A model generated the notes under the pieces. The model saw only the letters and a program-made list of their open reading frames with translations. It was not told where the DNA came from and did no database searches. This document shows, piece after piece, positions 17,666-41,915 of a stretch of DNA of 64,000 nucleotides (position 1 is its first letter; each line of letters begins with the position of its first letter). The DNA comes from Takakia lepidozioides (taxonomy: Eukaryota; Plantae; Bryophyta), in assembly GCA_030704615.1 (NCBI GenBank), contig CM060734.1, forward strand, positions 38,688,001-38,752,000, read 5' to 3'. Made by a program: the position numbers and the translations under genes.

Positions 17666-18972
17666 TGTCGCGCACCTCACTTCGGTAAGCTCCCCTTCAC
17701 ATCATAGTTACTCGCTTTGATGCGCGCGCCTAACTCCCAAACTGGCTGCCAGGCCAACTCGGAGCTTCGGCTGCTCACCAGGACATAACGGTCTCCTTTT
17801 GCTCCTCCACAAGACCCTCGCTCACTTTGGGCCTAGTGGAAATTCCTTTTGGTTGTTGGCAGCCCGGAACAGCTCCCCACACCTTGGTCGCTTTCCGGCT
17901 CAACACGCTTACTCACTAGTTTTTGGTCACCAACGGGCTTGCACCGTTTTCGGGGTTACTACTCCCTATATATACTTCTGTGACTGTCCGCGGGGGTTTC
18001 ACAAACAACACCGTCTTTTTATGGCGAACCACCACGAAGACCCTTGACTCCCGGTGATGAGTCGCAGTGAGTCTTGGCCCACCCACCACGGCCCCAATGG
18101 ACCGTGATGAGTCCCAAGACTCCCCACGACTCCCACCATAAGGTCTCCGCCCCATGGTGAGTCTTATGCGCCTCCGCCTCCTTGAGTGCCTTGGGCACTC
18201 AAGGGTGCTTCAGCCCCTGTACCTATTGTTGTCACTGCCCCCACCACAAGAGCAGCCCCTCTTGTGTCCCGACCCATTGCACTCAAGACAAAGGGCCACG
18301 ACACACACCTCTACCAACAGGGAGTCGATGTCATCATCGACTTGTCCATTTTGTAGAAACTAACATCCTAGTTGTGGCGTCCCACATCAAGGAGTTTGTT
18401 TCCGTACCATGGCGTCCCATGGCAAAGAACCAAACCCCCACTTGACTCTACTCTCCACTAGCTAGTTCGGCCGACTTCCTCCAAGTCTCGGCCAAGGGTG
18501 GAGCCTCTCTAGCTCCATCCAATGCACTCTTCTTGGCCCACTTCAAGGCCAAGGAACGATCCTCCCCGAGGATCAAATCGCCCTACTGCAACAACATTGC
18601 TTGCGATCGCTCATGATGCCGCTTTTTGGCATCACCTTGAGCAAGGGTTCACCTTGAACCCTTTTTGACTAGGAAGATAACCTTGAACCAACCGTGCGGC
18701 CTAATCACTGCAATTGGGTCCGCCTTGGAATGCTGGCCTGAGGTACGGGAGCACGCCGAAGCCGCACTATGACTTCGTCCTCAGGTTATATGATTATAGT
18801 ACGTGAACGGAAGCACGTAGCTTCCGCGTTAGCCCGCACTACAAGACAACCCCCTCGGTAGCGCAATTATAGTACGTGCACGTGCCATGTACGCACTAGC
18901 ACGTGAACTCCCAAAGAAGGCGCAAGTTTCATTGCCCTTTGGATGGGAGTCACCCGATTTCGGCACTACGCA
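17666..18972 (-). mobile_element. Probable solo LTR of the chromovirus family also present at 37858-39655
   Basis: 17666-18300 is highly similar to 38426-38930 plus 39520-39655; TG...CA ends flanked by aaca on both sides; the right boundary is less certain. Confidence 0.7.
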
Positions 18973-19455: not shown

Positions 19456-19639
19456 GCCAAAACAAGAAGTTTTTTTCTTAAAGAAATGTGGGGGGATTTG
19501 TGTGCAGCAGCTGCTGTTCCTCCTCCTCTCACCCTCCCCCATTTTCCTTGGCCTAAGTAGGGGGGAGAGAGACAGCAGTAACAGCTGTTACTCTCTCCAT
19601 GCTTAGGCAAACAAAAGGAAAAAAAACAATAATAATAAT

Positions 19640-19949
19640 AACAGATTCGTTGCTCCCACATTTGACATATATGTTGACGTGGGTACTGTTCAGAATGACA
19701 CCTGATATAACCCTAGCTTTGACAACATCACCATGGACCTCTTTGCCTTTTTCGAGGGTTGCTTGCATGGTTGTTCATGCATTATAAACACAAACGAACA
19801 TGATGATCTGGTCCAACTTCAAGCCTTCCTGCATCATTTGCTCATAGGTCTCTATGTCGAAGTCTTCATGCCGCACCCCTCCTATGCATATCTTGCATTC
19901 ATCACGTTCCACAACACCACATCTCGTTTAGCCATATTGTCAAAACACT
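19640..19949 (-). pseudogene. PLS PPR pseudogene, left part, interrupted by the Gypsy element
   Basis: ATLEKGKEVHGDVVKARVISGVILNSTHVNIYVKCGS plus degenerate P/S motifs; the PPR sequence resumes at ~30547 after the element. Confidence 0.75.
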
Positions 19950-20344
19950 TGTCATGGTTTTAGTCATGGTTAACTAGAATTACCTACTTCTAGTTAACTA
20001 TGACATTTTGGATATTTATATTTGTATTTTGTGTGTTGAGACTTCATTTGGTCTCACATGCCAAGTGAGGTGTCAAACCTCACTTGGGACATGGGGATGG
20101 GTTTTCCCCTTGTGAGTGTTGAGGAGGGCTCATCTTCTTGTAGTTGAGCCTCCATGAGCCTCTCCCACCTCCATAGCTCTAGGTATTGAGAGGGAATGTG
20201 GTGAGGGCTTTGTAGGGTGGATTCCTTTAGCAAAGGTGTCATTGGCTTGACTTAGTTTATGTGATTGAGTGGATTCATGAGTGGAGTGTTTCCATTGTGT
20301 GTTCACATCCATTATCACTACAAGAAGATCACCTTATGCTTGTG
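19950..20344 (+). repeat. Terminal repeat A1
   Basis: Near-identical to 30080-30454 apart from a ~17-bp indel; not followed by repeat B. Confidence 0.92.
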
Positions 20345-21810
20345 AGTGCGGAGTGTAAGGATTAGTTTTAGCACTTGTGTTGGTGTACACCGAGGAGTGA
20401 GAGAGCTAGGAAAGCTCAAGTATCTCACAAGGCTTGTAAGGTGCTGCAAAGAGGAGTGTTTTTGCATTGCATCAAAGAGGTGGAGAGCTCAAGGAGAGAG
20501 CTCTTGAGTTACAAGACTTTGCAGAGGTGGAGAGCTTAAGGAGAGAGCTCTTGTATCACAAAGCTTACATGGTTTTGCAAGGTAAGTGTTTGTATGTGCT
20601 CTGAGGGTTTGAGAGCTTGGAAAAGAGCTCTTGCATCACAAGAGAAACGTCTTGTGTGTGGAGAAGATAAACACTAGGGTTTCAAGAGCAAGCTCTAGTT
20701 GTTCATGGTGTAAAAGAGAAGCCAAAGAGCGGCACATGCTTGGGTTGGAAACACCATAGAAGGCGTACAACAAGGGTAGCTTGAGGAGTATTGAGTAGCT
20801 CAAGAGAAGCTAAGAAGTGGTTGTTCTATCCATGGTGAAATGAAGCCAAGTGGGGTTTTATTTGGTTGACAAACAAACAAACAACCAAAGACGGCGCTAG
20901 AAGGGAGTGATTTTGCTAGTTCTATGAGTTCTTGGATTGCTCTTGGTGAAGCAAGTGATTGACCAAGCAAGTGGCGCATGTGTGGAGCATGTTTTCCAAG
21001 TGTGGCTTCTAATTCAAGCTTGAGGAGAGCTAGAAGGTGAAGTGAGCAAGTTCATTCCTTGTGTATGAGGTGGTGCATGTTGTGGAAGAAAAGCCAAGGA
21101 GCTACATAGGCTAGGGCTTGAAGACAACAAAAGCAACCACTTGGAGAGCATCAAGAAGCTCAAGATGACTCCAAAGGGAAGCATGTGGGTAAGAATTCTA
21201 TCCATGATGATGTGAAACCAAGCCTAAAGTATTGAAGAGCTTGGAGCACATGTGGGAGATCATTGGAGGTGGTCTTCATGAATAAAGAAGATTGTGGCTC
21301 ACGACATGCATAGCAACTTCAACCATACATTAGCATGTAACAAGACAAGGAAGGGGAAGGTGAAGCTCATGTATTCATTCCCTTTTTACTTAAGTTTTGT
21401 GGTGGATGGTTGATCAAGCAAGTGATGCTTATGTGGAGCATGCTCTTTAGGGCTTGTGACTTCAAGTTTGAGAAGATAAGCTCTTGAATAGAGGTGTGGA
21501 TACACATTATGATGAATGAAAAGAACACCTAGGTTAAGAGGTGGAAGTGTGTGTGACTAGCCCATGCAAGGGAAAGCACATGGAAGATGGCATACAAAAT
21601 TCAAATTCAAGCAAGGCTTGGTGCTTGTCATTGGGCACATTAGCTTGCTATGAGTTCCAAGGAGATCAAGAGGAACTTGTCAATTTGGGATGAGTGCATT
21701 GCAAAGTAAGATAATGCAATCTTGCATGCATGTTAGGGGGGAAGATACCATGAAGAAGGTGTTTCTTACTATACTCTACAAACCCTAGTCTCCATACTCT
21801 TCAAGAAACT

Positions 21811-21985
21811 GAGTATGGGCTCCCTCTGCCCATCATACACTTTTTTGAACAGTGTATGGAACCCCTCTGTCCAACATACTCTTTTGTGAACAGAGTATGG
21901 GCCCCCTCTACCTAACATACGTTGTTTCGAACAGTGTATGGGCTCCCTCTGCCCCCATCATACACTTTTGTGAACAGTGTATGGA
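21811..21985 (+). repeat. ~41-bp tandem repeat (4+ units) in the element's 5' leader
   Basis: Units ag.gtatgg..cccctct.cc.a.catac..tt.t.gaac repeated four times, each with inverted gtatg/catac. Confidence 0.8.
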
Positions 21986-23002
21986 TACAAGTGGAGAGAC
22001 TTTGCCTACCATACGTTTTCATTAAAAGTGTATGACATCTAGGGTTAATCTGGAGGAGTATTGCCTTTTGAGGATCTTTGGGGGGTCCTTTGAGGAGCTT
22101 TTGTAGGACACTTGAAGAGCTCTTGAAGGGGTGTTTGGAGGACTATTTGGAGGACTATTGGGGGTCCTTGTAGACCAATATTTGGCAAACATTTGGAGCT
22201 TTAGAGGGCTATTTGGAGGACTATTTTGGGATCCTTGGAGGCTAATATTTGGCGAGCTTAAGGAGTCTTTGGCAACTTGTCTGAAGGACTTTTTGGGGTC
22301 CTTGAGGGCCAAGATTTGGCAGGCTTTGGGGGCCTTAGTGAGATTGTTTGAGAGACATCTTGAGGGCTCTTGGAGAGTTATTTGAGAGACCCTGGAAGGT
22401 AGTTATGTCTGTTGGTCATGAGCAAGAGCGTTTAGAGATAGGGGGAGACTAGTGGGATGAGAGCATTCTGGGATTAGGAATTGCTTTAGTCTCTCTTCCT
22501 CGTAGTCTTCCACCCTCTATGTAGGCCAAAACCTTTCCGTAGGTGGAGGCAAGAGTCAGTCCGGGTTTGGGCTGGGGTGTTCTTGCAGGAGCGACACTGT
22601 GGAGTGTTATTTTTGGTGTGGGGGAGTTCCTGTCTTGATTTTCTTGTGTTTGGATCCCCCCCACACCTGCGTGCTTGACTGTGCACCATGTCAGTTTTGT
22701 GTGGGCACTTGTTTTCATAGGAGGTTGGTCCGGATTTGATCACCGACCAATCCTAGAGCATGCTGTCGGTGGTGAGGCTGGGGTGATGACCAGTCAGACC
22801 ACCATTGTTTCTCTTATGGTGAGACTGGGTTGATGACCAACAGACCATATGAGTGCTTGCAGTGGATGCAGGTGCAGGTTTATGTTACGAACCTAGTAGT
22901 CTAAGCCATAAGCCGCAACAGGTTCTCTACCCAGTTACCTTGTGGAAAGGGGGATTAGAGACAGGTTTACAACAGGTGTGGTTGTGAGTTTTCATCACGG
23001 AG

Positions 23003-24691
23003 GTGCCACCAGTTGCTGAAGAGAGTGCCGGTACGAGCACCAACGATATTAGTGGGTATACAAGACGAGGTGTGCGGTTTAGGCCACCTTCACCTTTAGT
23101 GTCTTCCGAGGAAGGTTCAGACTCAGAGTTAGGAGGATTCTCGCCGAGGTTGCAAGCCATTTCCGTGCCATTGTTGTGGGATACGATGGAGGAAATGTAT
23201 GGAGCTACCAAGGGGCCACGTCGGTACTCTGGAGCTGTGGGCACCATCGAGCTTGATGATTTTATACAGGAGTTTGATAGTTGGTATGATTTGCAGCAGA
23301 TGCGCAATCCACAACTGTTTACGCCTTTTATGGCGTGGAAGGGACTGTTTCAGCACCTTGAGGGGCCGCCCATGGATGACTACCATGAGTTTAGGCGGGG
23401 ACATGAGGTGGAGATTGAGGAATGGTGGGTGTATTGGTCACCTGACTATGTCTCCATTACTAGAGGCACAAGGGTAGTGGTGACACCGACAGCTACACCA
23501 GCAGTTTCTGCAAGCAGCAGTGGGACGTCAAGTGGAACAGGAGCTGGGAAGTCCACCCAAGTTCCTGCTGCAGCACCAACATCCGTGCCTCCCTTTAACC
23601 CAGTTGTGGAGTTCTTCGAGGAGTTGAGGAGAAACTACCAAGGGATAAGGACAGAGAAGTTGCGGGGCTTGCAAGAGTTCCAACGAAGGTCTACTGAGAG
23701 TTTGAGGGAGGCTTTCACTCGCATGAGGCGCTTGATAAACGTAACCCAAGGGGTTACAGAAGCTCAGGCAGTCCAGTTCTGGTATGGGATCCTGGACAAG
23801 GAGCTGAGGAGAAAGGTGCGGGATGCAACTCTCCTACAAGTGGACCAACCTACCTTAGCAAATGTGTTTTTGCTGGCAGAGCGGATAGAGCTCAATATGG
23901 TGGAGGAGCGAGTGGTCATGGTGGGGTTTGGTCAGGAGACACAACGAAGTGGAGCTCTTAGCCAACAACAACCACTACCCCAACGTGCTCAAGGCAATAA
24001 GGGGGCTCAGGCAAAGCCCAGGGAAGGGCCGAGAGGATCTCAATTGCAGAGGTCACTTCCTTCATTCTCAGGCCAACAACAGTCAGGTGTGATATGTTGG
24101 GATTGTGGATGACCCCATGTTAAGAGAGATTGTCCGGAAAGAGGCAAAGGGCCGGCACAGGCACAACCTACACAACTACAATGTGGGCATTGTGGCAAGA
24201 ATGGGCATGAAGAGGCCCATTGTTATGACTTGCATCCTGAGCTACGGCCAGGCCAGTTCCAAGGGAACAATGGTGGCCGAGGACGAGGCAATGTAGTCCA
24301 GAGAGGTAGAGGAGGCAGAGGTCGAGGTGGAGGACGTAACCAAAACCAAGGAGCACAGGGTCAGGGTCAAGGTCATGACCAAGGCATGGTGGATAGACTT
24401 GCCCAGCTAGAGCAACGTCTTGCTGCCATGGCCACTACTCATGTTGCGCCAGCTCCAAGGCTTGAGGTTCAAGCCCCACCTGCACAACCTCCTACGCCTA
24501 GGGAAGACCAGATTGGTATGGGCTTCATGTGTGGAGCCGCACTTGCAGGACCATTGCATGTGGAATCTGCAGCTGCTGTCACTCGAGTAGCAACGCGTGC
24601 TCCTAAGCCAAGAAGAGCGGATGTGGATTTTGATCCACAAAGAGGGGAAGCAAGTCGGTTCAGAAAAGGCACGAGGGATTACACGCCATGA
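23003..24691 (+). pseudogene. Gypsy gag with two CCHC zinc knuckles and an RGG-rich tail
   Basis: 369-aa ORF continues in frame past a TGA at 24110: CWDCG*PHVKRDC, CGHCGKNGHEEAHC, GGRGRG repeats. Confidence 0.85.
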
Positions 24692-24737
24692 GCTCTTCAT
24701 TCGATTATAACCAGATCATCCTACAGATGGCTCTATC

Positions 24738-24870
24738 ATGAGAGCTAAAGTCATTGTTACGGACGCAATGTCTTATGATGTGCTTGTTGGTGGGGCTGTG
24801 TTATACCCGATGGGCTTTACTCTGGACTTTTGGGAAGAAACGACATCCTATAGGCCGGAATGGCAGTCAA
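24738..24870 (+). pseudogene. C-terminal remnant of retroviral-type aspartic protease
   Basis: VIVTDAMSYDVLVGGAVLYPMGFTLDFW resembles the YD(I/V)LLG...L....ID(F/W) protease C-terminus; the catalytic D(S/T)G is not seen and was probably deleted. Confidence 0.55.
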
Positions 24871-25259
24871 GGGATGGCCGACGTGCACTACTCCCAGTGC
24901 GGTTTATTGGGAATGTAGCGGTGGATCATAGGAACATGATGCCCATATTTGCTGCATTCTCAGGGGTGGTGGTTTGGGGTGGTGAGCTCTTGGAGGGCAA
25001 TAGCCATGCAGATGATAGGCCACCACCTGATGAGGACAAACAATTGGCATACAAGGCTGATTTGCTTCCTCATGTGCTTGTGCATATTCCACTGTGGGGT
25101 ACGGTTGGGTGCACCAATTTGCAACGAGTAGCAGGCGAGAGTGTGCACCAAGCATGGCAGGAGGCCTTTCCATTGATGAGTGAGGGAAGTTCAGTGACAT
25201 CACCTGGACCTCCTTAGTTAGCTCCTTTGGACATAGTGCCCATTACCTGGCAACCACCT

Positions 25260-26225
25260 GACTCAGGGATTTGTTTGCTAGATCTGTTTGGAGGCATGAG
25301 CACTGGGCTTGCAGGAGTATTGCAAGCTGGGATTAAAGTACGCAAATACTTATATGTGGAGAAGGATGAGATAGCTCGGCGTATTTCTATGCGCCACATC
25401 GCCTTGCTCACACACCGGTATCCTGAGTTGTTGCCTCTCTCAGCAATTTAAGGGTATCAAAAGGCCTTGCCAGTAGACATTACCTTGCTGGGGGCGGATG
25501 ATTTGGACCAGCATGGTGCCATTGACTTGGTGATAGCTGGATGGCCTTGCCAAGGACACTCTCCCGCAGGTCATGGGAACGGCTTGCATGATGCACGATC
25601 GCATTTGTTTTGGGAGATGTTGAGAGTGTTGCGTGACTTGCAGACGAGGCAAGTGCAACCTCTAGCCTATATCTTGGAGAATGTTCCTCTTATGGGGGAC
25701 TCTCGGGTCAGGGTTATGGCCACTGTGCATCAGGTGCGGTCTTGGATTGGATCGGCGGTGCTATTGGATGCAGCAGCGGTGGGATCACGAGCGCATCGAC
25801 CTCGATTGTGGTGGACCAATCTTGCACCACCAGAGCTGCTCAAGAGAGCATACGATTCCATTCAACGCCCACCCAATCTCACAGTTCAGGGCATTTTGGA
25901 CCAAGGGAGGCAACCAGAGAGGGTGCGACATGATGACCGTCCACCTCTAGCAGTGGTAAATCGAGTGGGGCAGCCACGTGCGGCCTTGCCTACGCTCATG
26001 AGCTTTCCCTCGTCTCATGCTTTTTGAGACAATGGTCCTGGGTTGATTTGGGACAGTGTGCTACAGCAATTGGAGGAGCCAATGCAGATGAGCGAGAGCG
26101 GGCAATGGGATTTGCCACGGGCACTATAGCTGTGCCAGCTCTGTCAGAGGCATCACGCCGACATGTGTTAGGTCAAGAAATGGATCTAAATTGCTTGACA
26201 TGGGTCATTGGCTTGTGCATGGCTG
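25260..26225 (+). pseudogene. C5 cytosine DNA methyltransferase domain (DNMT3-like) inside Gypsy pol
   Basis: Motif I LLDLFGGMSTG; II YVEKD; IV DLVIAGWPCQG; LFWE; VI YILENV; VIII AHRPRLWWTNL; IX ERERAMGF; X RRHVLGQEMD. Two in-frame stops (~25449, ~26025) and a frameshift near 26070. Confidence 0.92.
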
Positions 26226-26749
26226 AGCAACGGAGGTTGCAGACAATGGTGGCTACTTCTGCACTCCCATTTGGTATTGTATCCCCTCTGCCAACCGGGA
26301 CGGTTGAGGCAGTGAGTGGGGGCGAGCATAGGATCATGGGGTGCAAACACCCATGGCAGATGTGGGATGAGATGCGGAAAGAGAGAGTCATTGGATCTCT
26401 CAAGCAGCAATATGAGGAGTGGGGAGAGCCATACACTGAGGATCAGTTGGAGGCCAAGGTGGCCAATGTCTTTGAAGAGGTTGAGAATGTTTCTTCCCCA
26501 GAGGATGTTCTCAAGGTGGTTATGGCAGAGCAAGTGGAGGCTACGCCACAGTCAGATTGGGCGGACAAGGCCCAAGAGTTTGCTATCTAGCAACCAAAGG
26601 ATTCGTCTCCTACCCCCAAGCCTGATGTACCTAAGGTTGCAGTCACTGAGGACAATTGGGAACCAGATGTTGGACCTACAGTCACCAGAGGAGAGAGACG
26701 GAGGATCCAGCGATTTCTAAGGGCTTATAGAAATTGCTTTGCCTTCGGT

Positions 26750-28162
26750 TTGAAGGATTTTGGGAGTTTGAAGGGTCAGGAGATTCGTATTGATTTGGCA
26801 AGTGACACGCCAATCCTTCGAAGGCCCTACCGGTATAGTGACATGGAGAGGTCATTGATCCAGTCACGGACTATGGAGTTGTTCGGAGCTGGATTGGTGG
26901 AAATGTCAGGCGGGGAGTATGCCTCGGCAACGGTGATGCCAGCTAAGAAGGATATCTATGGCAATTGGACAGAAAGAAGGATGTGTGGGGACTATCGTCC
27001 TGTGAACCGTCAGACTAAGTCCGATAGATATGCCATGCCAACTCCAGAGGAAATCTTTGATGCCATTGGGCATGCGAAGGTGTTTAGCACATTGGACTTG
27101 CGATCCGGTTAGCACTAGTTGCCAATCAAAGAGGCTGACAAGCAAAAGACGGCATTCTAGGGGATTGATCAACATGGGAAGGATTGTTTGTACCAATGGC
27201 GCTTCCTACCGTTTGGGTTGAATAATGCTCCTGCAGAGTTTCAGAGGGTTATGGATAAGATTCTCGCGGGGCTAGACTTTGCCCGGTGTTACATTGATGA
27301 CATCATCGTCTTTAGTGCTACGGTTGAGGAGCATCAGAGACACCTTCAGGTGGTGTTTGAGCGCTTTGAGAGCGCATGGGTTGAAATTGCACCCTGGGAA
27401 GTGCAAGTTCTTCCACAACCAGATTGAGTATCTGGGCCACATGATATAATACCGTGGAGGATTGGGTATTCAAAAGACGAAGGTGGAGGCCATTGCACGC
27501 ATTCCATGCCCCATAGATGTTAGCAGAGTCGTGCTTTCATGGGGTTGACAAACTACTATCGATGGTTTGTCAAGGGATTTAACAGCATTGCAAAGGCTCT
27601 TACTAAGTTAACCAAGGTGGGTCAGGAGTGGCAGTGAGAGAAGAAGCAGGTGGAAGCCTTTGAGGAACTCAAGGCTCGATTGACTTCTGCACCTATTCTG
27701 AGGCGGCCTATTCGGGGGCGGCCTTTCCAGCTACATACGGATTGGAGTATGCTTGGGATTGGAGCAGTGCTCACACAGGTGGATGATGAGGGAAGAGAGT
27801 TCGTAGTGGCATATGCTAGCCGCTCAAACAATGATGCCAAGGCGAAGTAAAGTTCCTATGAAGGGGAGTGTCTAGCTGCGGTATGGGCAGTGGCACATTT
27901 CAGATGCTACCTCTATGGCAATCTCTTCACCCTTGTCACAGATCACCAACCATTGAAGTGGTTGATGGAGTCAGACAAGCTTACAGGGAAGCTTGCACGG
28001 TGGGCACTTATGCTTCAAGAATACGACTTTCAGGTGGTGCATCGAGCCGGTATTGTCAATCGGGATGCAGATGGATTGACTCGTAATCCATGCACGAGCG
28101 AGCATGATGATACTGGAGCTCGGTGGCATGGTGAGACGGATGAGGAGATGGTGCCAGGATGA
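26750..28162 (+). pseudogene. Gypsy reverse transcriptase and RNase H
   Basis: RMCGDYRPVN, FSTLDLRSG, LPFGLNNAPAEFQRVMD, YIDDIIVFS; RNase H LHTDWS...AYASRS...TDHQPLKWL...ADGLTR. Confidence 0.95.
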
Positions 28163-28474
28163 CATGCATCTGCTTTTTTGTGCATCTTAGCAATGGGAGC
28201 TCAAGCTGGTCCATCCCATAGCATTGGTCATGTAGATGGTATGCATGACGATCCGGAGATCAGTGAGGAGCTTGGTGGTGCTAAGGATGTGCATGAAGAT
28301 GCAGCAGTATTGGCCTACCTTCGTACTAGAGAGACAGCAGCCAGTGTGACTGCTAAGGAGAGAGATCAGATCCTACAACGAGCCAAGAGGTTCAAGTAGG
28401 AGGGGACTCACCTACTCCGAGTATGGGAGGATGGACAAGTGAGGATTGTGCCTCATCCAACACAATGAGCGCGA

Positions 28475-29530
28475 TTGGTACGCCATGCCCATGAGGAGTT
28501 GGGACATTTTGGGATGCGGCGCACTCATAGTTTGCTGCAAGGACAGTACTGGTGGCAGGGCATGCATACGGATGTGCAACAGTTAGTGGCAAGGTGCATG
28601 GTGTGTGATAGAGTGCGAGTTTCTTTCAATGCACCTACTCCACGATTGCATCCTTTACCCATTATGGGTTTGGGCTATCGTTGGAGTCTTGACTTCGCAG
28701 GCCCATTGCCACTAACAATTCGCCATAACAAGTATGTGCTGGTGATGGTGGAACATTTCTCCAAGTGGATTGAACTGGTGGCATTGCCTGACAAGGCAAG
28801 TGAGGGGGCTGCGTATGCATTCTTAGATCGAGTGCTTAGCCAATTTGGTGCTCCAGCCGAGGTACTCACGGACCAGAAGAGAGAGTTCTTGGGGGAGTTT
28901 TAGGCTTTCTATGAGCAAGCCTTGATAGATCACCGCACTACTTCTCGGGATCATCCCGAGGCTGATGGCCTGGCAGAGAGGGTTGTACAAACAATCAAGC
29001 GAGGCTTGCGCAAGTATGGCTTGTAGAAGGGACACTTAGGAGATTGGGACCTTCAGCAACCTTGGTTGGCCGTGGGCTACAGGTTTAGCAAACAAACATC
29101 ACTTCCCTCGTTCTTGCCGTATTTCCATCTCTTTGGCCGAGAGCCAGATTTGCCTGCATCTATTCGCAGGGAGACTGCAGTAGTTCTCAACCTTGATGAT
29201 TAGGATGTGTGGACACAAGCATGTGCCCAGCGGGCAGAGTTGTTCAAGAAAGTCATGCCTATGGCTTTTGAGAACCTTGCTATTGCCCAACACCGAGACA
29301 CATTGAGGTATGCCACTATATGTAGAGGGGGATATCGGCCAAGTGTTCGGCGTTTCCACCCTGGGGACTATGTGTATCTGCAGTAGACAACGCCTACGAC
29401 TTTGGATGTCACAGCAGGGCGTGTGATTCTAATGGTCCGGGAGGTGTTGCCTTCAGGAGTGTTGATTCTGGAGGGTCGAGATGGCATGGTATGGAAGGAC
29501 CGTGTGCGCAATTGTGCGCCATGTCACCTT
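28475..29530 (+). pseudogene. Gypsy integrase (HHCC zinc finger, DDE core)
   Basis: HEELGHFG...CMVC, WSLDFAGPL, VEHFSKW, VLTDQ...EF, HPEADGLAER. Confidence 0.93.
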
Positions 29531-29533
29531 TGA

Positions 29534-29737
<204 letters not shown>

Positions 29738-29985
29738 TGGGCATGACAATGGTGGAATTGACAAATGATCCAAGGTCTAGCTGATGGGAGCTCAACACCA
29801 TGGATACTTAATTGAAGATCATGGATTGCAGGAAGGCGAGTAATGATGGGGGCTACTTTGGCACCCGGCCTCTTGATCTATTGACTTTAGATATTGGGAC
29901 ATATGCGATTGACCAAGCGATGCCTTTATTGAGATGTATACTTGTCAGCTATCCGGTGTTAGAGAGACCTAATCACTAGCTAGGA

Positions 29986-30546
29986 GGGCGATTGTGGCAT
30001 AGCTTTCTAGGATTGTGTGCTTAGAATGTATGGTGGACAACGATGTATGTTGTGGCACAATGCTTAGGTGCACGAGAGCTGTCATGGTTTTAGTCATGGT
30101 TAACTAGAATTACCTACTTCTAGTTAACTAAGAAATTTTGGATTTATATTTGTATTTTGTGTGTTAGGACTTCATTTGGTCTCACATGCCAAGTGAGGTG
30201 TCAAACCTCACTTGGGACATGGGGATGGGTTTTCCCCTTGTCAGTGTTGAGGAGGGCTCATCTTCTTGTAGTTGAGCCTCCATGAGCCTCTCCCATCTCC
30301 ATAGCTCTAGGTATTGAGAGGGAGTGTGGTGAGGGCTTTGTAGGGTGGATTCATTTAGCAAAGGTGCCCTTGGCTTGACTTAGTTTATGTGATTGAGTGG
30401 ATTCATGAGTGGAGTGTTTCCATTGTGTGTTCACATCCATCACCTATGCTTGTGGGGCGATTGTGGCATAACTTTCTAGTATTGTGTGCTTAGAATGTAT
30501 GGTGGACAATGATGTATGTTGTCGCACGATGCTTAGGTGCACGACA
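29986..30546 (+). repeat. 3' terminal block B1(29986-30077)-gc-A2(30080-30454)-B2(30455-30546)
   Basis: 92-bp B (gggcgattgtggcata...gcttaggtgcacga(g/c)a) occurs on both sides of A2. Confidence 0.9.
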
Positions 30547-31640
30547 CACTGCATCTAGTTAAACCACCTTGCTGCACCCGCTCTTGAATTACATGTCCAC
30601 CCAAGGTAGGGTTCAGAATGACATCTGATACAATTTCAGCTCTTACGATGTCACCATGGACTTCTTTGCCCTTTTCAAAAGGGTATCAGGAGAGAAAGAA
30701 CTCCCTCTCTCTCTCTCTATCTCTCTCTCTCTTCCTTAAGCTCCCGACGCGATGAATTCGAGGTCAGATGGTGGGGTCAGCTGCAACGTATGACTAATAC
30801 CCGATATCCTAAGTTAATCGACTCTATATCTTGGAAGCAGGACTGCCCAGTAGATTTCAAATAGTTTGGATTCTAATTTAATGTCCCAGTAGCTATATAA
30901 ACTATTCTAAGTGTCAAATTGGTTGTACGAGGAAGAACAAGCTCATATGAAATGTGATGGGACATACAACTTGTTGTTAGGTGCTGGTAAAATGCAGGGA
31001 GAACATTCTACTGTTCGGATGGATCCCACCTGCCAGCTGCAGCATAATATTTGATAGCAACACATAAGTCGCGGCATCCTATTCATTCGACGTGAGGATA
31101 GATGTTGCCGCACGTTCAGCCATCTCCACATTGTCATGGATTCTGTAGGCACCAAGCAAGGCCTTCCACACCACAACATCTGGATTGATGGCATTTTATT
31201 AATTAGGTCCATTGCCTCATCCAGTTGTCCCGGTCCACGAGGGTATTGTTTAGAATCACATCTGGTACAATTGTACCAGATGTGATTCTGAACAAAACCC
31301 TCGTGGACATATATTGATTGAATTGATATGAATTGATTCCAGCTTTTGCGATGCAACCATGCACCTCTTTGCCCTTTTCCAGGGCTGCCAGGCTTGCACA
31401 CGGACTGCAACCGCACACAAATATGATGAGGTCGGGCTTCACCCCTTCCCCCATCATTTGCTCATAGGTCTCCAAAGCCTCCCTTCCGCGCCCATGCTGT
31501 GCATACCCTGCAAGCATCGCACTCCACGACACCATATCTCATTTAGCCATAGTGTTGAACACTTTCTTTTCATTCTCAAAGCACCCACATTTGACATACA
31601 TGTCCACCAAGGCAGTGTTCAAAATTATATCTGGTAATCT
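30547..31640 (-). pseudogene. PLS-E PPR pseudogene fragments (right part of the interrupted copy plus a second degenerate copy)
   Basis: NTALVDMYVKCG, VSWSAMLAGYAQHGRGREALETYEQM, ASLAALEKGKEVHG, GQLDEAMDLINKMP and E-domain remnants; frameshifts. Confidence 0.8.
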
Positions 31641-34600
31641 GACAGGCATTCACATTTTTCCCTTGGTTGTTCCACCATTGACTGGGGTCAGAAAAGTACT
31701 CACTGCATAGCTTCTCCTCGTCTCTGCTACCTGTTTCTGGATACTTTCCTATTGTCACATTGGCAGTATCATGTCAAAGCCACTCCAAATTAACTCAACC
31801 AGCTAACTTGCAGAATTCAACATGAAATTTTGGGGCCGATTCTGATAAAAGGGAAAAACAGGGTGAACGGTGTTGAAGAAGGTGCCTTGATTAGTAGTGC
31901 CTCATTTTATCAATTGTGCCTCTGCTGCTGCTGCGGCTTCTAGTTGACCATCTACACACACTACAAGAGATGAGCGTTTTTAGGACTACGTCTTTGGCGG
32001 AGTCATAAAAACTGCACTAGGTAGATGACTACAGAGCGTTGAAATGCATTGCAGTCATAGTTTTATGACTTTGTAGTAATGGATATCACTACATGACTCC
32101 GGAAAGTTAGGGAGCATTGGTCAAACATTGTTGACCATGATGACAGGGATGGTTTATATGACTAGTGTGATATGTTTGACTACACGTGGACGACGTTTCA
32201 TGGAATCTTATGACTCCATGACTGAAGATGGTTTCACAGCTCTATTTATACGACTACATCACTACACGTGTTCATTTTGAAGGCACATATAATGCAAATA
32301 AGGTTGCCCATTAGGTTTAAAAAAAATAAAAAATTGCTAATAAGGTTGCCCATTAGGGTAATCGTGAACAGAAAGGAGGGCTGGGACTTGGCGTTTTTTT
32401 GTCTCCTGCGCCACACCACATAGCCGAGGGATGGAACGCGATGATAGCAGGATATGCAGGGGCGTGGGATGGAGGCGTTGAGCAAATGATGCACGAAAAA
32501 GAAGAAGAGGAGGAGACGAGACGAGGAGAAGCGAGCTCGCCGTTCTTGGGAGAGTCAGCTTGGTCTTAGCATGCGTGTTTCAATCTCTGACTACTCAGCT
32601 ACGCCGTAGTGGTTCGATCTCACAGACCAATCCGACATTACCTGACTACAGACACAAGCAGCACACACAAGAGGTCATTTTAGGTTGATGGTCGGTCAAA
32701 TCCTCCATGGGTCAGGACAGGTCAAGGACAATGTGGTAGGGTACCTTCTTCTTCAACCTATTTCAGCCTGTGTTGCCCTCTCATCAGACTCGGCCGCAAG
32801 ATGCATATTGAAATATGTAAGTTAGGTCATTGGGTAGATCTGTGGTGGTTTGGAGTGACTTTGGCAAGTTACTGCCAGTGTGGCAGCATGGAAGTATCCA
32901 AAAATATATAATAGAGGTGAGGAGAAGCTTTGGGGTGAACACTTTCCGGCCCCAGTCAATGGTGGGACAATAGAGACAAAAAAGCGAATGCCTGTTGGAC
33001 TACATAGAGAAGCAGATGCATTTCAGATTGTGATAAGTAGGGTTGGGGTGTTTTGGGGAAGAACTCCACACCAGTATGGTTGGGGTGTTTGCTGGTAGAA
33101 TTCTAGGCTGTCAGAGGCATGGATAGCTGAAGGAGCAGGGATAGAGTGTGGGTCCAGATTCATCCAAGAGGGCTGGATTTCAAGCTCCACATTACCTATG
33201 ATTCCCTGTGGAAGGATAGCTACAAGAAACCTACATGGGTAGATGGTCAACTGGAAGCGGCAGCAGCAGCGGCACAATTGATAAGGTCAGGCACTTCTAC
33301 TGAAGGCACCTCCTTCAGCACATTTCACCCTGTTTTTCCCTCTTATCCGTTTCTTGCGAGCTGTCTTCTCTTATCTGTTTGTCTGCCCAGTCTTCAGTGA
33401 ATGCGTCAAGGCTTTGTGTTTTGGCTTCTTCCTCGCTTTTGTCATCCTCTCCCATGAATATCTCTGGTGCGCTCAAACCCTGCTGAGCTGTAGATGTTGT
33501 CCATGCCAATGCATTCTTCTTCACCAAATCCATGTTTTTGCCCTAAATCCTTGATGTCTTGGCTGGATTTCTGCAGAATAGGCATCCCATCCCCTATTTT
33601 GGCCTTCTTTGCACTTCCCCGTGTCAACATGTTGATGTGGGGTGTTGTTGTAGTCTTATTGGAGTGTGATCACTTATATGGTATATCTCGTCCAACTCAT
33701 CCAGTGCCTCCAGCTCATTATGAGTGAACTGACATGATACTTGTGTTGTTGGTTGCATCATGTACTCCGTGCTTGGCAATGGGTAAGCTTCTCCTCCTTC
33801 CACGTACTCATTGATCACTGCAAAAGGTACTCCATACATCTTCCCTTGAGGTCCTGCCCCTTTTTTTGCTTCTGTGATTGGTTCAGCTTTGCTGGAAGTT
33901 TGCCAAGATCCATGTTGGGTTAGTGTGTGACGACTGTGTCTCATGTTATTACAGATTTTAGACAATGTTCTTTGTTTGGGCCTTCTAATGCCTTGTCTGA
34001 TGGACTCAGGTTTGTCAAAATCAACTTGTATCCACTCTGCTTCCATGTTGTTGCTGTCAGTAGCTTGTTCTTTTGCCAGCTGAACCCCGACAGGGCCTGG
34101 GTCTTCCCTTCTGCCCGCATCAGAGCATTTCGCAATGTCTATAGTTGCTTCATCCTTCCTCAACTCCGCCCTCTCTTTGGCAGGTTGCGCACCTTCACCA
34201 CCTTTGTTGTTTTTTTATTTGCACATGGTATCTGCTGCTTGCGTATCCTCATTGTAGTATTGAATATGCCCTGTAGGCATTGGCCTTACAAAGCCATTGT
34301 GCTCACTCTGGGTTTGGGTCATAGAACTTGGTTGTCATTGTCAGCTGCTAGCAGCAAGGCGAGGATGTATGCATGATTTGTGCAGGGGCATGGATAGCTG
34401 AAGGAGCAGGGATAGATGTGTGGGTCCACATTCATCCAAGAGGGCCGGATTTCAAGCTCCATATTACCTATGATTCCCTATGGAAGGATAGGTACAAGAA
34501 ACCTGCATGGGTAGATGATCAACTGGAAGCCGCAGCAGCAGCGGCACAATTGATCAAATCAGGCCGTAAGTATTGCACTGTTTAACAGGGTCCTTGATTC

Positions 34601-37220
34601 TAGTAGCACCAGAACAAACTAGTATTACAACAATTCAGCCCATGTGTGGGCTTGCTTATTTTTTGCTTACTGGACCTTTTCAGGCATGGATTTTTGGACC
34701 TTGTGACCTTTGAGGTGTCCATTGGGACATTGGTCTCATTTGGATTTTTGTAATATAATTTACAGGGCGTGTATTTCCCTGTACTTGTCTATTTTGAATG
34801 TCCTTGTGGTTGCTAGTATGCAAGAGGGGTCCATTCTATTTTTATATCAGAATTTCACCATATAATGAAGAATTTAAATTATTTAATCTATTTTTATTTT
34901 ATATAACATTATTAAATTAAACATTAATACCATTTAATAAAAAATTCCAAGCTGCTATCCCCTTATTTCAAAAATAAAATATAAATTTAAGAATTTAAAA
35001 TTACAAATATAACTATTAAATTATTTTCAGAGACATTCTTGATGACACGTGGCATAAACCCTGCCATATATGCTAGTCATATATTATGTCTAAGTGCCAC
35101 ATCTGAAGTGCAACAGGTGTCGTGACGTGTCGCTTGCGCAGTGGTGTACGTGTTCCTCTAAAGCCTCTCCATGTAGGCAACGCTCATCAGACAATGTAGT
35201 CATATAGTTAGTCGTATGTAAGTCATAGAGTTGTAACTACATCACTCTCTTATGCATGACTCCAGGTGCCACGCACGCAGTCACGGCTATCACTTGCAAA
35301 ATGCAGTCCTAAAGACTAGTCGCTATGACACGGCTTTTTTCACTATAGAGTGATGTAGTCATGAACGCATATAGGACTGAAAAAATAGTCATATGTGCAG
35401 TCATAAAAACGCTCATCTATTGTAGTGACATGCAAGTATCTTGTAGCTATCCTTCCACAGGAATCAGAGGTAATCTGGAGCTTCTAATCCGGCCCTCTTG
35501 GATGAATCTGGACCCACACTCTATCCCTGCTCTTTCAGCTATCCATGCCTCTGCACGAATCATGCCTACATCCTTGCCTTGCTCCCAACCATACTTCTCA
35601 CACTAGTTTCTATGTTGACTTGCATCTGCTTCCAACATACATTCACCGTTTTGCCTCGATTGTTCCACCATTGACTAGGGTCGGAAAGTTACGTGTTCAT
35701 TCCAGAGCTTCTCCTCGTCTCCGTTATCTGTTTTTTGATACTTTCTTGTTGCCACATTGCCAGTAACATGTCAAAATCACTCCAAAACCACCATAGAGAC
35801 GAGCTAACTTGCAGAATTCAGCATGAAAATTTAGGGACGACTTTGATAATAGGGAAAAACAAGCTGAAATGTGTTGAAGAAGGTGCCTTCATTATACTCA
35901 ATTGTGCTGCTGCCGTTGTTGTTTCCAGCTGACCATCTACCCACACAGATTTCTTGTAGCTATTGATCCACAGGGAATCAAAAGTAATCTTGTGTTTGAA
36001 ATCCAACCCCCTTGGATGAATCTGGACCTCTATCCTTGGTCCTTCAACCAACTAACTTGCAGATTTCAACATGGAAATTTAGGGCCGATTCTGATAAGAG
36101 GGAAAAACAGGGTGAAATGTGTTGAAGAAGGTGCCTTCATTAGCAGTGCCTGATTTTATCCATTGTGCCACTGCTGCTGCGGCTTCCAGTTGACCATATG
36201 CCTTCCACATCATAGGTAATCTGGAGCTTGAAATCCGGCCCTCTTGGATGAATATGGGCCCACATTCTATCCTTGCTAGCAGCTGAAGCAGCTGACACTG
36301 ATGGCATGAAGTTCTTCCAGCAAACACCCCAACCCTACCTATAGTAACATGTCAAAATCACTCCAAAACCGCCATAGATCCACCAACGAGCTTCTCCTCA
36401 TCTATGTTATCTATTTTTTGATATTTTCATGCTGCCACATCGGCAGTAACTTGTCAAAGTCACTCCTAACCATCACAGATCCACCCAACGAGCTAACTTA
36501 CAGAAATCAATATGCATCTCAAGGCCGAGTCTAATGAGAGGGTAAAACAGGCAGAAATAGGTTGAAGAAGAAGGTTCCCTCACCACATTGTCCTTGACCT
36601 TGTGTCATGACCCATGGAGGATTTGACCGAACATCAACCCAAAAATGACCTCTTGCGTGTGCAGCTTGTGTCTGCAACATTCAAAATGAAATCTGGTAAT
36701 TTGACAGGCAATCACCTTTTTGCCTCGTTTGTCCCACCATTGGCTGGGGTCAGAAAATATTCATCCCACAGCTTCTCCTCATCTCTGTTACCTGTTTTTG
36801 GATACTTTCCTGTTGTTACATTGGCAGTATCATGTCAAAGTCACTCCAAACTACCAAAGGTTCACTCAACCAGCTAACTTGCAGAATTCAACTTGGAAAT
36901 TTAGGGCCAATTCTGATAAGAGGGGAAAACAGGGTGAAATGTGTTGAAGAAGGTGTATTCTCCTCACCTATGTTATCTGTTTTTGGATACTTTCCTGCTG
37001 CCACATCGGCAGTAACTTATCAAAGTCACTCCTAACCACCACAGATCCCCCCAACGAGCTAAAGTAAAAAATTCAATATGCATATCAGGGCCGAGTCTAA
37101 TGAGGGGGCAAAACAGACTGAAATAGGTCAAAGAAGAAGCTGCCCTCACCACATTGTCCTTGACCTTGTGTCATGACCCATGGAGGATTTGACCGACCAT
37201 CACCTCTTGTGTGTGCTGCT
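31640..37220 (-). repeat. Scrambled array of OSB/PTAC9-type PDF-motif fragments and flanking modules (several partial copies)
   Basis: Repeated EEKL(W/C).EYFSDPSQWW(D/N).R.K (~31680, ~35670, ~36740) and IHPRG(P/L)DFK(L/H)(H/K)IT.DSLW...KK..WVDGQLEAAAAAAQL (~31930 continuing at 35430, ~35950, ~36200). Confidence 0.75.
31959..35427. mobile_element. Non-autonomous CACTA (En/Spm) element with captured sequence
   Basis: TIRs CACTACAAGAGATGAGCGTTTTTA / TAAAAACGCTCATCTATTGTAGTG; 3-bp TSD ACA; subterminal gactac/gtagtc repeats; no transposase visible. Confidence 0.92.
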
Positions 37221-37890: not shown

Positions 37891-38370
37891 TCAACGCTTC
37901 TTCCGCTTCCGAGGTCGCCCTTCGAAAGCTGCAACCGCCTCGGATGCGTTTCCCATTTCTGAGGCACGCATCCAAGTTGTCTCCACTTGATGATAGCCCT
38001 TCCATTTCACGAGATATTCCGTTTCGTGATTTTGGATGTCCTTGAAGGTGTCGGGTTCCTTAGGCTTCACCTTAAATTTTGCCTTAGTGGAAGTGGCATT
38101 AGCCGCCCTCATCACGTCTTTCAACGTCCCGCCAAACTGCGCCAACAACCCTCCCCAAAAGGCTGCAGACATCTGTTGGTCTGGCAGAGCCTCTGGGAAG
38201 TCATCGGGCTCCGACTCCCCAAATTCCTCCCGTTCTTGAGCGGCCTCGCTTTCAGAAGCATAAATTGTCTCTTCCAATTGCCACTTCGGTGACATGTCGC
38301 CCCCACCGGGCTCACCAGGATCATCATCTTTTGGGCCGTTCTGCTTTCGTTTTGTCTTGCCCGACCCCAT
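37891..38370 (-). CDS. Gag N-terminus fused in frame to a partial chromodomain (~159 aa)
   Basis: ATG at 38370; ...KVKPKEPDTF joined to KDIQNHETEYLVKWKGY...TW; open to the stop at 37891. Confidence 0.55.
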   Translation of the reverse strand: MGSGKTKRKQNGPKDDDPGEPGGGDMSPKWQLEETIYASESEAAQEREEFGESEPDDFPEALPDQQMSAAFWGGLLAQFGGTLKDVMRAANATSTKAKFKVKPKEPDTFKDIQNHETEYLVKWKGYHQVETTWMRASEMGNASEAVAAFEGRPRKRKKR

Positions 38371-38979
38371 GATGAGGCCGATCTCAAGGACGATCGCGTA
38401 CTGAACTCTAAGCTCTGATACCAAGTGTGGTGCACCTCACTTCGGTAAGCTCCCCTTAACGTCATAGTTACTCGCTTTGATGCGCGTGCCTAATTCCCAA
38501 ACTGGCCGCCGGGCCAATTCGGAGTTTCAGCTGCTCACCGGGACATAACGGTCCCCTTTTGCTCCTCCACAAGACCCTCGCTCACTTTGGGCCTAGTGGA
38601 AATTCCCTTTGGTTGCTGGCAGTCCGGAACAACTCCCCATACCTTGGTCGTTTTCCGGCTCACACACTTACTTACTAGTTTTTGGTCACTAACGGGCTTG
38701 CACCGTTCTTGGGGTTACTACTCCCTATATATACTTCTATGACTGTCCGCGGGGGTTTCACAAATAACACCATCCTTTTATGATGAACCACCACGAAGAC
38801 CCTTGACTCCCGGTGATGAGTCGCGGTGAGTCTTGGCCCACCCACCACGGCCCAATGGACCGTGATGAGTCCCAAGACTCCCCACGACTCCCACCACAAG
38901 GTCTCCGCCCCATGGTGAGTCCTATGCCACCCCCACTAAGACCCACTAAGCTACCACCACCCCTCGTGGAACCAAATTG

Positions 38980-39455
38980 GTATCCTTCTGCCATGCTCCC
39001 CTCGGGCCTTGCCATGTTTCTTACGTAGCCCTTCATATCTTTCATTGCCCGCTCCATGGGGTACATCCAACGAGATGCTACGGGCCCGCATAAGTACAAC
39101 TCATCCACTAGGTGAACAACCAGATGTGTCATCACATCAAAAAATGATGGTGGGAACTCCTTCTCTATAAGACACAAAGTGAGAACTGCTTCAGTTCTCA
39201 ATTCCTCATACTCTACAGGATTCACCACTTTTGCACACAACTTCTTAAATACACGACATACTCGCAAAATGGCCCTTCGAGGACCACTTGGCATGAGCCC
39301 ACGGATAGCAAGCGGTATAATTTGCTGCATGAGCACATGATAGTCATGTGATTTCATGCCAGACAACTTCTTCTTCACCACATGCTTTTTGAAAGCTGAT
39401 GCGTAGCCTGTTGGCACTTTCAAGTTCTGCACAATCTCCAGAAAAGACTTGTAAC
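38980..39455 (-). pseudogene. CACTA transposase (TnpD, DUF4218 region) fragment embedded in the chromovirus LTR
   Basis: LKVPTGYAS...GMKSHDYHVLMQ...EKEFPPSFFDVMTHLVVHLVDE...GPVASRWMYPMER..K.MKGYVRNMARPEGSMAEGY. Confidence 0.9.
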
Positions 39456-40539
39456 TCAGCCTCAGTGAGGACATAAGGGGCAGGAGGTCGCAACCCGGTA
39501 TGCGGGGCTCCACCTAGTGAGCGCCTCCGCCTCCTTGAGTGCCTTGGGCACTCAAGGGTGCTTCAGCCCCCGTACCCATTGTTGCCACTGCCCCCACCAC
39601 AAGGGCAGCCCCTCTTGTGTCCCGATCCCCTGCCCTCAAGGCAAAGGGCCGCGACAAAACGGCCACTGCATCATGAAGAGAGTCGAGAAGAAAATAGTCT
39701 TGTGTCGTCATGAACAAATTGTTTTCGACTTTGAACTTATCGATAACGTGGCTCAATAAGTGTTCCATGCCACTATCTATGTGCGAGAAAACAAGAGCGG
39801 CTACACGAGGATCTGAAAGAGAATGGCTCAAGCTGTACAACTCACCCTCAACATTGGCAGTCTTTTGTTTGCCGAGTTTTGTGCCTACACCTCTTGTGTT
39901 CTTGGCTGTAGATGCATTTGCGTAGACATGTTTAATGACCTTTTCTGATTGCTTTAGATGGGAAGGTGGACATATTTATGGCATCCAATATAAAGTTTGA
40001 ACCCAAAACCATTGGTGAGGCAACATGTGCTTTTACAATTGGATTATATGTTGGTTTGATGCATCTTAAATGTATGGCTTGGTGAGTGGAGGTTGCTAGG
40101 TTGATGATGGCTTGAATGACATAGCGGTCGAGGTTTTGGTCATGTGAAGAGGGGCGAGCTAGGTGATTGCGGAGGAAAAATAAGGAGGTAACATTGTTGG
40201 TGAAAATTTAATGAGGTGGAGGAATCAATGGAGCACGTTGGATGCCTCGTATATAGCCATAAGTTCGGCTCGGAGTATAGTTGGGGGCCTGGTAGGCGGT
40301 GTGATGTTCCTTGGTTAGTAGCAGCTTGCAATACTTCATACCCTACTTCAGAGTCGGCTTGAGATCCATTGGTGTTATAGTGTGGGTTGGAGGGGGAATA
40401 CTGGAGTGCTATTCTATGTGGATATGTAGGAAAAGTTGGTAGCACTGGGGGAAGAAGATCTAAGCAAGGACGCAGAGGCGCCGTTGCCCAGGATGGTATA
40501 GAATTGTGCTTCACCAAACACAGCGGATACGGTTGGTGC

Positions 40540-41915
40540 GACATATTCATCAAGAATTGAGGCATTTTGGGATACGATGCACCCACAGTCTACTGCAATG
40601 ACATTATTATGGGTGACGCGATATACACACATAAATGCATCAATTCGTGGCTAGGTGCATGTCGTGTGACATGATGCATGCTTCGTTCAAAGCCCCTACA
40701 TCACAATCGCATCATCTTCTTATCATGAGATTACCTACAGTTGGAGTCTTGACTTTGCCTAACAAGGCTAGTGAAGGGGCTCCGTATGCATTTCTAGATT
40801 GTGTGCTTAGTCAATTTGGTGCTCCAGCTGAGATACTGACGGACCAGGAGGGAAAGTCTTTGGGGAAGTTTTAGATGTTGTACAAAAACACCTTAATAGA
40901 CCACCACACCATTTCTTGGGATCATCCCGATGCCGATGTTCTGGTAGAGAGAGAGAGTTGTACAGATGGTTAAGAGGGGTTGGCGCAAGTATAGTTTGCA
41001 GAAGAGACAACTTGGAGATTGGGACCTTAAGCTGCCTTTGGTTAGCCATGGGCTATAGGTTCAGTAAGCGGACATCACTTTGTTTCATTCTCGTCATATT
41101 TCCTCTTTTTTGGCCGATAGTGTAGTTATTCGTAGAGACATTACTATAGTCCCTAACCTTGACGATTCGAACGTATGGACACGTGCATGTGATCAGCACG
41201 CTGAGTTGTTCAAAAAAGTCATCCCCATGGTTTTTTCGAGAACCTTGTTATCCCACAACACCGTGATATATTGAGGTACGTTAAATTATGTTGAGGTATG
41301 CTACTATGCGTAATGGAGGCTATCGGCATGGGATCTGGAGGTTTAACATTGATGACTATGTTCATTTGCAGCAAATGGCTTCTCCGACCTTGGATGTCAT
41401 TACATGACGTATTATTCTGAGGGTTCGAGAGGTATTGCCATCGACATGAGTCTTGATCTTGGAGGGTCGAGATAACATGACTTGGAATAACCATGTACAC
41501 AATTGCGCACCATGTTACTTTCTCAATGTTGATGGTAGGATTGACCAAAACTTGTAGTGGTACAACGTACATGTAGGTTGGAAATGCATGTTGTGTGGGT
41601 GTGATGAAGGAGCAATCACCATACTGGTGTGTGATCAAAGCTTAAGAAGTTGACACATTAGATATTTAACACCACCTCTTAAGAAGGTTCATAATGGGAA
41701 TTGGTTGTATCCACGTTGCATTGAACTGTGGTAGTGGATACAACCATGGAAGACTAACAAGAAACACAAGGCCAATCTAACAAGAAACACACGGTCAATC
41801 TATTATATCAAAACCAATACACGAGATACCTAGCTTAAGTTTACGGATTGCAAGAATACGACTATGATGGGGCTTCTTTTGTACCTAACATCTTGATCTA
41901 TCGAGTTAGAATATA
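40540..41915 (+). mobile_element. Older, heavily degraded relative of the DNMT-Gypsy family (integrase, PHD, 3' UTR only)
   Basis: QFVARCMSCD..., LPNKASEGAPYAFLDCVLSQFGAPAEILTDQEG and a PHD remnant (CMLCG...LVCDQ...WLYPRC), collinear with 28480-29900. Confidence 0.85.

Follow-up and report, generated by a model that had tools for sequence, protein, structure and literature searches.

The element and its surroundings

The window, a 64,000-nt stretch of DNA, contains a Ty3/Gypsy element (Table 1) in which Pfam matches give the domain order gag, protease remnant, DNA cytosine methyltransferase (DNMT), reverse transcriptase (RT), RNase H (RH), integrase (INT) and PHD finger. The protease-RT-RH-INT order and the DDE integrase that characterize Ty3/Gypsy elements are both present, and the termini TGTC...GACA with a short target duplication agree with the TG...CA ends of this class. 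The gag part gives a weak match to Pfam Retrotrans_gag (E 0.004), has its likely start codon at 23186 and carries a single premature stop at 24110.

Table 1. Features of the element, in window positions
Feature	Position	Strand	Remarks
Left target-site duplication, CACT	19946-19949	+	Same bases at 30547-30550
Whole Ty3/Gypsy element	19950-30546 (10.6 kb)	+	Complete but decayed
Repeat A1, left end	19950-20312	+	Starts TGTC; 97% identical to 30080-30440
5' leader, long	20313-22987	+	Without a stop-free frame of at least 150 aa
41-bp tandem array inside 5' leader	21807-21984	+	
gag, two zinc-knuckle-like motifs	22988-24657	+	Aligns with gag part of related loci
Protease remnant and linker	24658-25214	+	tblastn match begins at 24660
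DNMT3-like C5 cytosine methyltransferase domain	25263-26225	+	Pfam, PDB matches, motifs I-X
Family-wide in-frame stop TAG CAA CCA, likely readthrough signal, ORF1/ORF2 boundary	26588-26596	+	
Reverse transcriptase with stops and frameshifts	26780-27530	+	RVT_1 E 5e-20
RT connection and RNase H	27533-28102	+	RT_RNaseH E 7e-34
DDE integrase with H2C2 zinc finger	28433-29092	+	Integrase_H2C2 E 8e-15, rve E 4e-12
C-terminal PHD finger, end of ORF2	29588-29737	+	PHD E 2e-10
Repeat B1, internal copy of right end	29986-30077	+	94% identical to 30455-30544
2-nt spacer, B1/A2 junction	30078-30079	+	
Repeat A2, internal copy of left end	30080-30454	+	
Repeat B2, right end	30455-30546	+	Terminates GACA
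Right target-site duplication, CACT	30547-30550	+	

Two complete LTRs are absent from the element, which instead has split direct repeats in the layout A1...B1-NN-A2-B2. A1 and A2 differ in 12 of 363 columns, and a weak similarity between them may extend to about 20345. Neither a tRNA primer site (TGG after A1) nor a polypurine tract before A2 was seen by eye in the window and three relatives. DIRS elements use a tyrosine recombinase; the Pfam matches of the window and of a related locus, L048, include no family of this hallmark type, and an rve integrase is found instead.

The insertion site is a minus-strand PPR pseudogene; when its two halves are aligned with the PPR gene at 2615-5095, a distance of 38 nt separates them. 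That gene, also on the minus strand, is intact and single-exon, and its E, E+ and DYW domains are those usual in factors that edit organellar RNA; further PPR fragments are found at about 1500-1800, 19600-19945, 30550-30700 and 31300-31650. A second, older related fragment at 40491-41907 on the plus strand runs from the integrase to the PHD end at about 71% DNA identity to 28440-29740, with no DNMT or RT match adjoining it. On the minus strand lie a chromodomain ORF (37894-38436) adjoining a DUF4218 transposase-like ORF (38761-39513), this region (37891-39513) being bordered by repeats common to 17666-18303; diacylglycerol kinase exons with C1 domains (49927-51856); and an ORF at 60436-61767 with seven copies of a 69-nt (23-residue) tandem repeat downstream of a signal-anchor-like stretch. 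At 31600-37200, direct repeats and inverted ones, 60-245 nt long, are interleaved in a cluster; they are probably small non-autonomous elements.

The preliminary description took the host to be a land plant and named an algal contig as the alternative. The neighbouring genes side with the former. Among the matches listed for the diacylglycerol kinase exon, 21 kb away from the element, Sphagnum is closest (71%), followed by Marchantia (60%) and Calypogeia (58%), with Riccia within the 57-60% group and vascular plants lower, and no alga is named among the best 120 of 209 matches; the PPR gene with its E, E+ and DYW domains points the same way. Judged from these sequences, the host is a land plant and likely a moss other than Sphagnum. 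In public runs from the same species, matching contigs fall in all 30 bins along the element (49,494 of them from run X1), and some span the protease-DNMT boundary. As the contigs cover the whole element, we take the family to be abundant in this species, although the summed contig depth of the same-species runs does not equal a copy number. Two runs guessed to be RNA yielded a few contigs, which give no basis for claiming expression.

The copy in the window had been called dead, and rightly so. It has 17 premature stops in four frames, not counting the TAG at 26588 and the terminal stop, and frameshifts besides; within the DNMT domain the lesions are stops at 25449 and 26025 and a frameshift near 26078. 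A deletion at 24657 has taken out some 200 residues, the D-S-G motif of the protease among them, as estimated from the distance in the Marchantia protein P0128. Since same-species contigs with loose ends at 24657 enter the missing piece from either side, this deletion is likely specific to the window copy. What does not belong among the lesions is the TAG at 26588, which is common to the family.

The DNMT3-like domain and its relatives

Between the protease remnant and the RT lies, as the preliminary description had it, a C5-methyltransferase domain with unpermuted motifs. In the translation of the window, motif I (DLFGGMSTG, 25281-25307), the motif II Glu (25359), motif IV (GWPCQ, 25539-25553), motif VI (ENV, 25677-25685) and motif VIII (RPRLWWTN, 25797-25820) share one frame, which is also that of the protease remnant, as had been stated for the main part of the domain; motifs IX (26090-26113) and X (26156-26191) follow in the next frame, after the frameshift. 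The comparison with Pfam DNA_methylase that had been proposed as a check gave a match that scores 51 bits, with the cut-off at 22 (E 1.7e-13).

The likeness to DNMT3 rather than to the permuted DRM type also holds. Among sequences of solved structures, DNMT3A is the top match (E 1.5e-11), then DNMT3C and DNMT3B, and further down come bacterial enzymes near 1e-4 and DRM2 at about 1e-3, the DRM2 alignment being limited to the first 144 residues of the window domain. The circular permutation of DRM, with motifs VI-X before I-V, is absent from the window domain, in which the motifs run from I to X. The AlphaFold model of a relative, P0006, which is 68% identical to the window domain and stands in for it here, has a pLDDT of 85, and its top Foldseek match is DNMT3A over the whole catalytic domain (E 1.5e-18, TM 0.81 by target); the rows listed for this model are DNMT3 structures exclusively. 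The resemblance to the catalytic domain of mammalian DNMT3A/3B thus lies in motif order and fold, whereas identity is about 21%, the element domain comes without PWWP or ADD, and its motif VIII-X spacing of about 125 residues is somewhat longer than in DNMT3A. Across related loci the motif I Phe (74/75), the motif X Gly (70/71) and the E (75/81) and N (81/81) of ENV, which was not a search seed, are conserved; the catalytic Cys is found in 80 of 80, but since WPCQG served as a search seed this count carries a bias.

Protein searches returned 142 relatives of near equal length and 55 longer ones. The named ones come from Marchantia, Calypogeia, Sphagnum, Closterium and one bacterial metagenome-assembled genome (MAG), and vascular plants are absent among the named rows of the 175 matches listed, most of which carry no species name. 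The MAG protein, P0036, is assigned to Obscuribacterales (cyanobacteria-related), sits on a 2.4-kb contig and likely reflects eukaryotic contamination. In metagenomes 114 loci were confirmed, of which the best 80 were kept. Among these 80, RT lies downstream of the DNMT in 54 of the 58 loci with at least 900 nt of downstream sequence, the protease lies upstream in 56 of the 63 with at least 800 nt of upstream sequence, and all seven domains are present in 21. The preliminary description proposed that a DNMT-carrying Gypsy lineage exists in an embryophyte genome, and this is supported by the land-plant host, the recurrent DNMT-RT order and the relatives named from Marchantia, Calypogeia and Sphagnum.

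Selection and tree comparisons had both been suggested at the outset. For the DNMT, five comparisons between lineages, made on near-intact rows with finite dS, yielded dN/dS of 0.11 (window-L001), 0.10 (window-L005), 0.16 (window-L048), 0.12 (L048-L057) and 0.20 (L001-L005), ratios that are rough because dS is near saturation (1.3-3.2). The pair window-L060 gave 0.20, two others were saturated, and values within a decayed close group were 0.51-0.78. This pattern shows purifying selection on the DNMT between lineages at a dN/dS of about 0.1-0.2. Trees of the DNMT and of RT plus RNase H, built from the same 31 rows, agree in their nested groups, the RT tree being a quick one without bootstrap and host DNMT3 being absent from every tree.

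The quick DNMT tree places the window in one group with Calypogeia, Marchantia, Sphagnum and two loci (support 98). Within this tree the Sphagnum and liverwort elements group together with the window's likely-moss element outside, at supports of 88-92; this arrangement is not firm, and it would correspond to old parallel lineages or to transfer between bryophytes. A protein of the alga Klebsormidium nitens, P0460, has the protease-DNMT arrangement and is 35% identical over 278 aa (E 3e-44); in the quick DNMT tree, which lacks host DNMT3, its branch is long and its position unresolved.

At E values up to 1e-30, a profile search returned 590 clusters (50% identity). In many of the best 150 the DNMT stands between RNase H and integrase (32 of them, for example, are RT-RH-DNMT-INT-PHD); a smaller number carry it behind the protease, and the names among the latter are Closterium and Klebsormidium nitens (20 of the 150 were looked up). 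The RNase H-DNMT-integrase proteins (P0159, P0160, P0172, P0175, P0387 and others) make up a large sister group, one member of which is named from the chlorophyte Scenedesmus. As this group is separate in both the DNMT and the RT trees, the domain was either moved once or gained twice. The ESM Atlas added one Streptophyta DNMT cluster and two viral clusters, and among 27 candidate stretches from viral contigs one is a distant phage DNMT.

The conserved stop and the split repeats

In L048, one of the relatives with least decay, ORF1 encodes gag, protease and DNMT (1369 aa; Pfam gives protease and DNMT only) and is followed, after one stop and in the same frame, by ORF2 encoding RT-RH-INT-PHD (1047 aa). 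L057 and L001 are arranged identically, with a single in-frame stop after the DNMT. The RT start could be aligned in the window and in 57 loci (58 copies, after two secondary RT matches were dropped), and of these copies 53 have a stop at the ORF1/ORF2 boundary, which is TAG in 40 and TAA in 13; four of the remaining five lack a homologous in-frame stretch and one has a sense codon. Decay stops, by comparison, reach a maximum of 16 of 46 in any column. The preliminary description had the DNMT inside pol, and this applies to a likely readthrough product only, since the DNMT closes the gag-protease frame and a stop separates it from the RT.

The six bases 3' of the stop read CAACCC in 46 copies, CAACCA in 3, CAGTTA in 2 and CAATCA and TAGCCA in one each. 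CAR YYA after a stop is the type I readthrough motif of tobacco mosaic virus, UAG CAR YYA, according to the text of PMC2754532. The TAG CAA CCA of the window fits this consensus, as do five further stops of the 53 (L001, L022, L046, L048 and L057), whereas 46 of the 53 family stops are one base off it. In these CAACCC copies an in-frame ATG comes next, so that reinitiation is possible there; the window, L001 and L048 have no in-frame ATG after the stop. Since the CAACCC copies form a single close group, the stop is represented by no more than about five independent lineages, and two proteins, P0157 and P0402, have DNMT and RT within one open frame. A pseudoknot or stem-type readthrough signal finds no support, as the sequence 3' of the TAG does not fold stably (z 0.03). 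Judging from conservation and context, we suggest that the stop is likely a programmed readthrough signal. Because the DNMT ends the gag-protease frame before the stop, it would be produced in the same amounts as Gag.

The split repeats, too, recur in relatives. The full A...B-NN-A-B layout is also found in L053, L058, L063 and L070, and B-NN-A-B in L013, L041 and L077, while several loci show A...B only, which may reflect recombination between B copies or assembly collapse. All 11 B/A junctions seen have a 2-nt spacer. Even L048 and L057, with a DNMT of only 48% identity, retain the junction sequence CACGACA-NN-TGTCA, which looks like two integrase attachment ends joined via a shared dinucleotide. 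Nine elements have both ends, and in seven of them the 4-bp target duplication is exact, the exceptions being L022, in which 3 of 4 bases match, and L063, which is truncated and unscorable. The window and L070 are compatible with a duplication of 5 bp, but L053 and L058 are not, and the length of 4 bp is therefore retained. An insertion that leaves a 4-bp target duplication is integrase-like behaviour. In all three groups where the 3' end was seen, split repeats and DNMT occur together. We point out that such elements would escape detection tools that need two full LTRs.

A 17-bp hairpin in A1 has a z of -5.4 and its L057 counterpart one of -3.4. A conserved self-priming hairpin at the start of A is unsupported, as the window A2 junction, L005, L053 and L048 reach z values of only -0.6 to -1.9.

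What the methyltransferase may do for the element

An element of this kind has been described from Klebsormidium nitens (PMC5890265). KnitGypsy-Dnmt3 is reported in that text to combine Gypsy domains with DIRS-like repeats and to carry a Dnmt3-like domain, intronless and unpermuted, under purifying selection below about 0.2; we find the same domain type, split repeats and selection in the window family. We infer that P0460 is this very element, and the relatives in Marchantia, Calypogeia, Sphagnum, Closterium and Klebsormidium place the window element with the KnitGypsy-Dnmt3 kind. The two differ in that KnitGypsy-Dnmt3 is from an alga and the window family lives in land plants, and in that the text of PMC5890265 places the DNMT in the Pol ORF whereas in the window family it closes the gag-protease frame, ahead of a conserved stop. 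That text makes no mention of a PHD finger, a target duplication or a 2-nt junction, although its figures may show them, and its survey table lists Physcomitrella and Selaginella and no Marchantia. SymbioDIRS-Dnmt3 of Symbiodinium likewise is a retroelement with a Dnmt3-type domain, reported there as an independent capture, but it is a DIRS element and the window element has a DDE integrase. The EpiLTRs/DAM-LTRs (bioRxiv 10.64898/2026.05.21.726589) are also Ty3/Gypsy elements with methyltransferase and chromatin-reader domains; as described in that preprint, their DNMT is sister to DNMT4 and is accompanied by an adenine methylase and a chromodomain, and its authors set them apart from streptophyte Gypsy-DNMT3.

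In the openly available article text that was searched, we found no description of the element in land plants, of its stop or of its target duplication, and the portions consulted of PMC12344493, bioRxiv 2021.11.30.470311, PMC11982613 and PMC9940879 contain no bryophyte description of it. The term streptophytes, as used in PMC12344493 and bioRxiv 10.64898/2026.05.21.726589, may already include bryophytes. The family was published from one green alga and is found here in mosses and liverworts, including Marchantia.

We lean towards the reading that the window holds a decayed land-plant Ty3/Gypsy element whose DNMT, ending the gag-protease frame, would likely be packed with Gag and would likely methylate the new cDNA at about the time of integration. 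In such a cycle most ribosomes would halt at the TAG to give Gag-PR-DNMT (PR, protease), and a minority would read through, adding RT-RH-INT-PHD. The protease would release the DNMT inside the particle, where it could methylate the cDNA and thereby tag it as self or pre-set its chromatin state. The internal B-NN-A junction could serve as the template for rebuilding both ends, an idea borrowed from general retroelement biology, after which the DDE integrase would insert the linear copy, with the PHD finger guiding targeting. If the enzyme is active, the methylated context is probably cytosines in CG, by analogy with the SymbioDIRS-Dnmt3 domains, which methylate CG in yeast according to the text of PMC5890265.

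Decay transitions in 72 copies amount to 0.208 in CG, 0.245 in CHG and 0.065 in CHH, and a CHG signature as strong as that in CG is consistent with host silencing while being uninformative on self-methylation. Inserted copies are not protected by carrying a DNMT, since the decayed ones show these CG and CHG transitions. The CpG observed/expected ratio (0.28-0.70) does not separate intact from decayed copies.

Other readings have to be weighed against cDNA methylation. The preliminary description considered the DNMT to be part of the polyprotein and not nested, and this stands. Bryophytes do have host DNMT3 genes, as reported in PMC5890265, from which a processed copy might have been captured, but a nested insertion or captured gene peculiar to this copy or species is highly improbable given the identical placement of the DNMT in 54 of 58 related loci, the congruent trees, the same-species contigs that bridge the protease-DNMT boundary and named relatives from Klebsormidium to Marchantia. 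A fixed and selected DNMT might nevertheless act in trans or on chromatin, at the insertion site, on older copies or on competitors, and so limit copy number or harm. Purifying selection fits this equally well, an amount of enzyme at Gag level would exceed the need for one cDNA, and such roles are listed in the text of PMC5890265. We consider it rather unlikely, as Pfam finds no separate targeting domain in ORF1 of L048 and as the abundance of the family (the contigs of one same-species run) gives no hint of strong self-limitation.

It could also be that the DNMT is kept for a non-catalytic or RNA-directed role, for example binding genomic RNA or cDNA ends for split-repeat replication. The domain does close the Gag frame, it is accompanied by split repeats in all three groups where the 3' end was seen, and the Klebsormidium enzyme was negative for methylation in yeast, a test that its authors deem inconclusive (PMC5890265). 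The retention of SAM-binding and catalytic motifs (motif I Phe, ENV, motif X Gly) makes this improbable in our view, and we favor methylation of the element's own cDNA.

A wider picture, which we put forward tentatively and hold to be doubtful as a whole, is that of an old group of green-plant integrase retroelements that do without paired LTRs and a tRNA primer site, rebuild both ends from a single internal B-NN-A junction and make an active DNMT3 at Gag level by readthrough, so that copies would arrive methylated; such elements would be abundant in mosses, with near-intact copies in Marchantia polymorpha. The conserved stop predicts that the DNMT is abundant in particles, and the split repeats together with the integrase-type duplication point to replication by a route that the textbook LTR scheme does not cover. 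The function of retrotransposon DNMTs was left open in the text of PMC5890265. In Marchantia polymorpha we find stop-free gag-protease-DNMT gene models (e.g., Mp4g09160, and several 1280-aa cluster members). A paper on the Marchantia methylome puts the number of DNMT genes at five in its text and leaves these models unmentioned (PMC5784723). These gene models bring the question of what a retrotransposon does with a DNMT into a genetic model plant.
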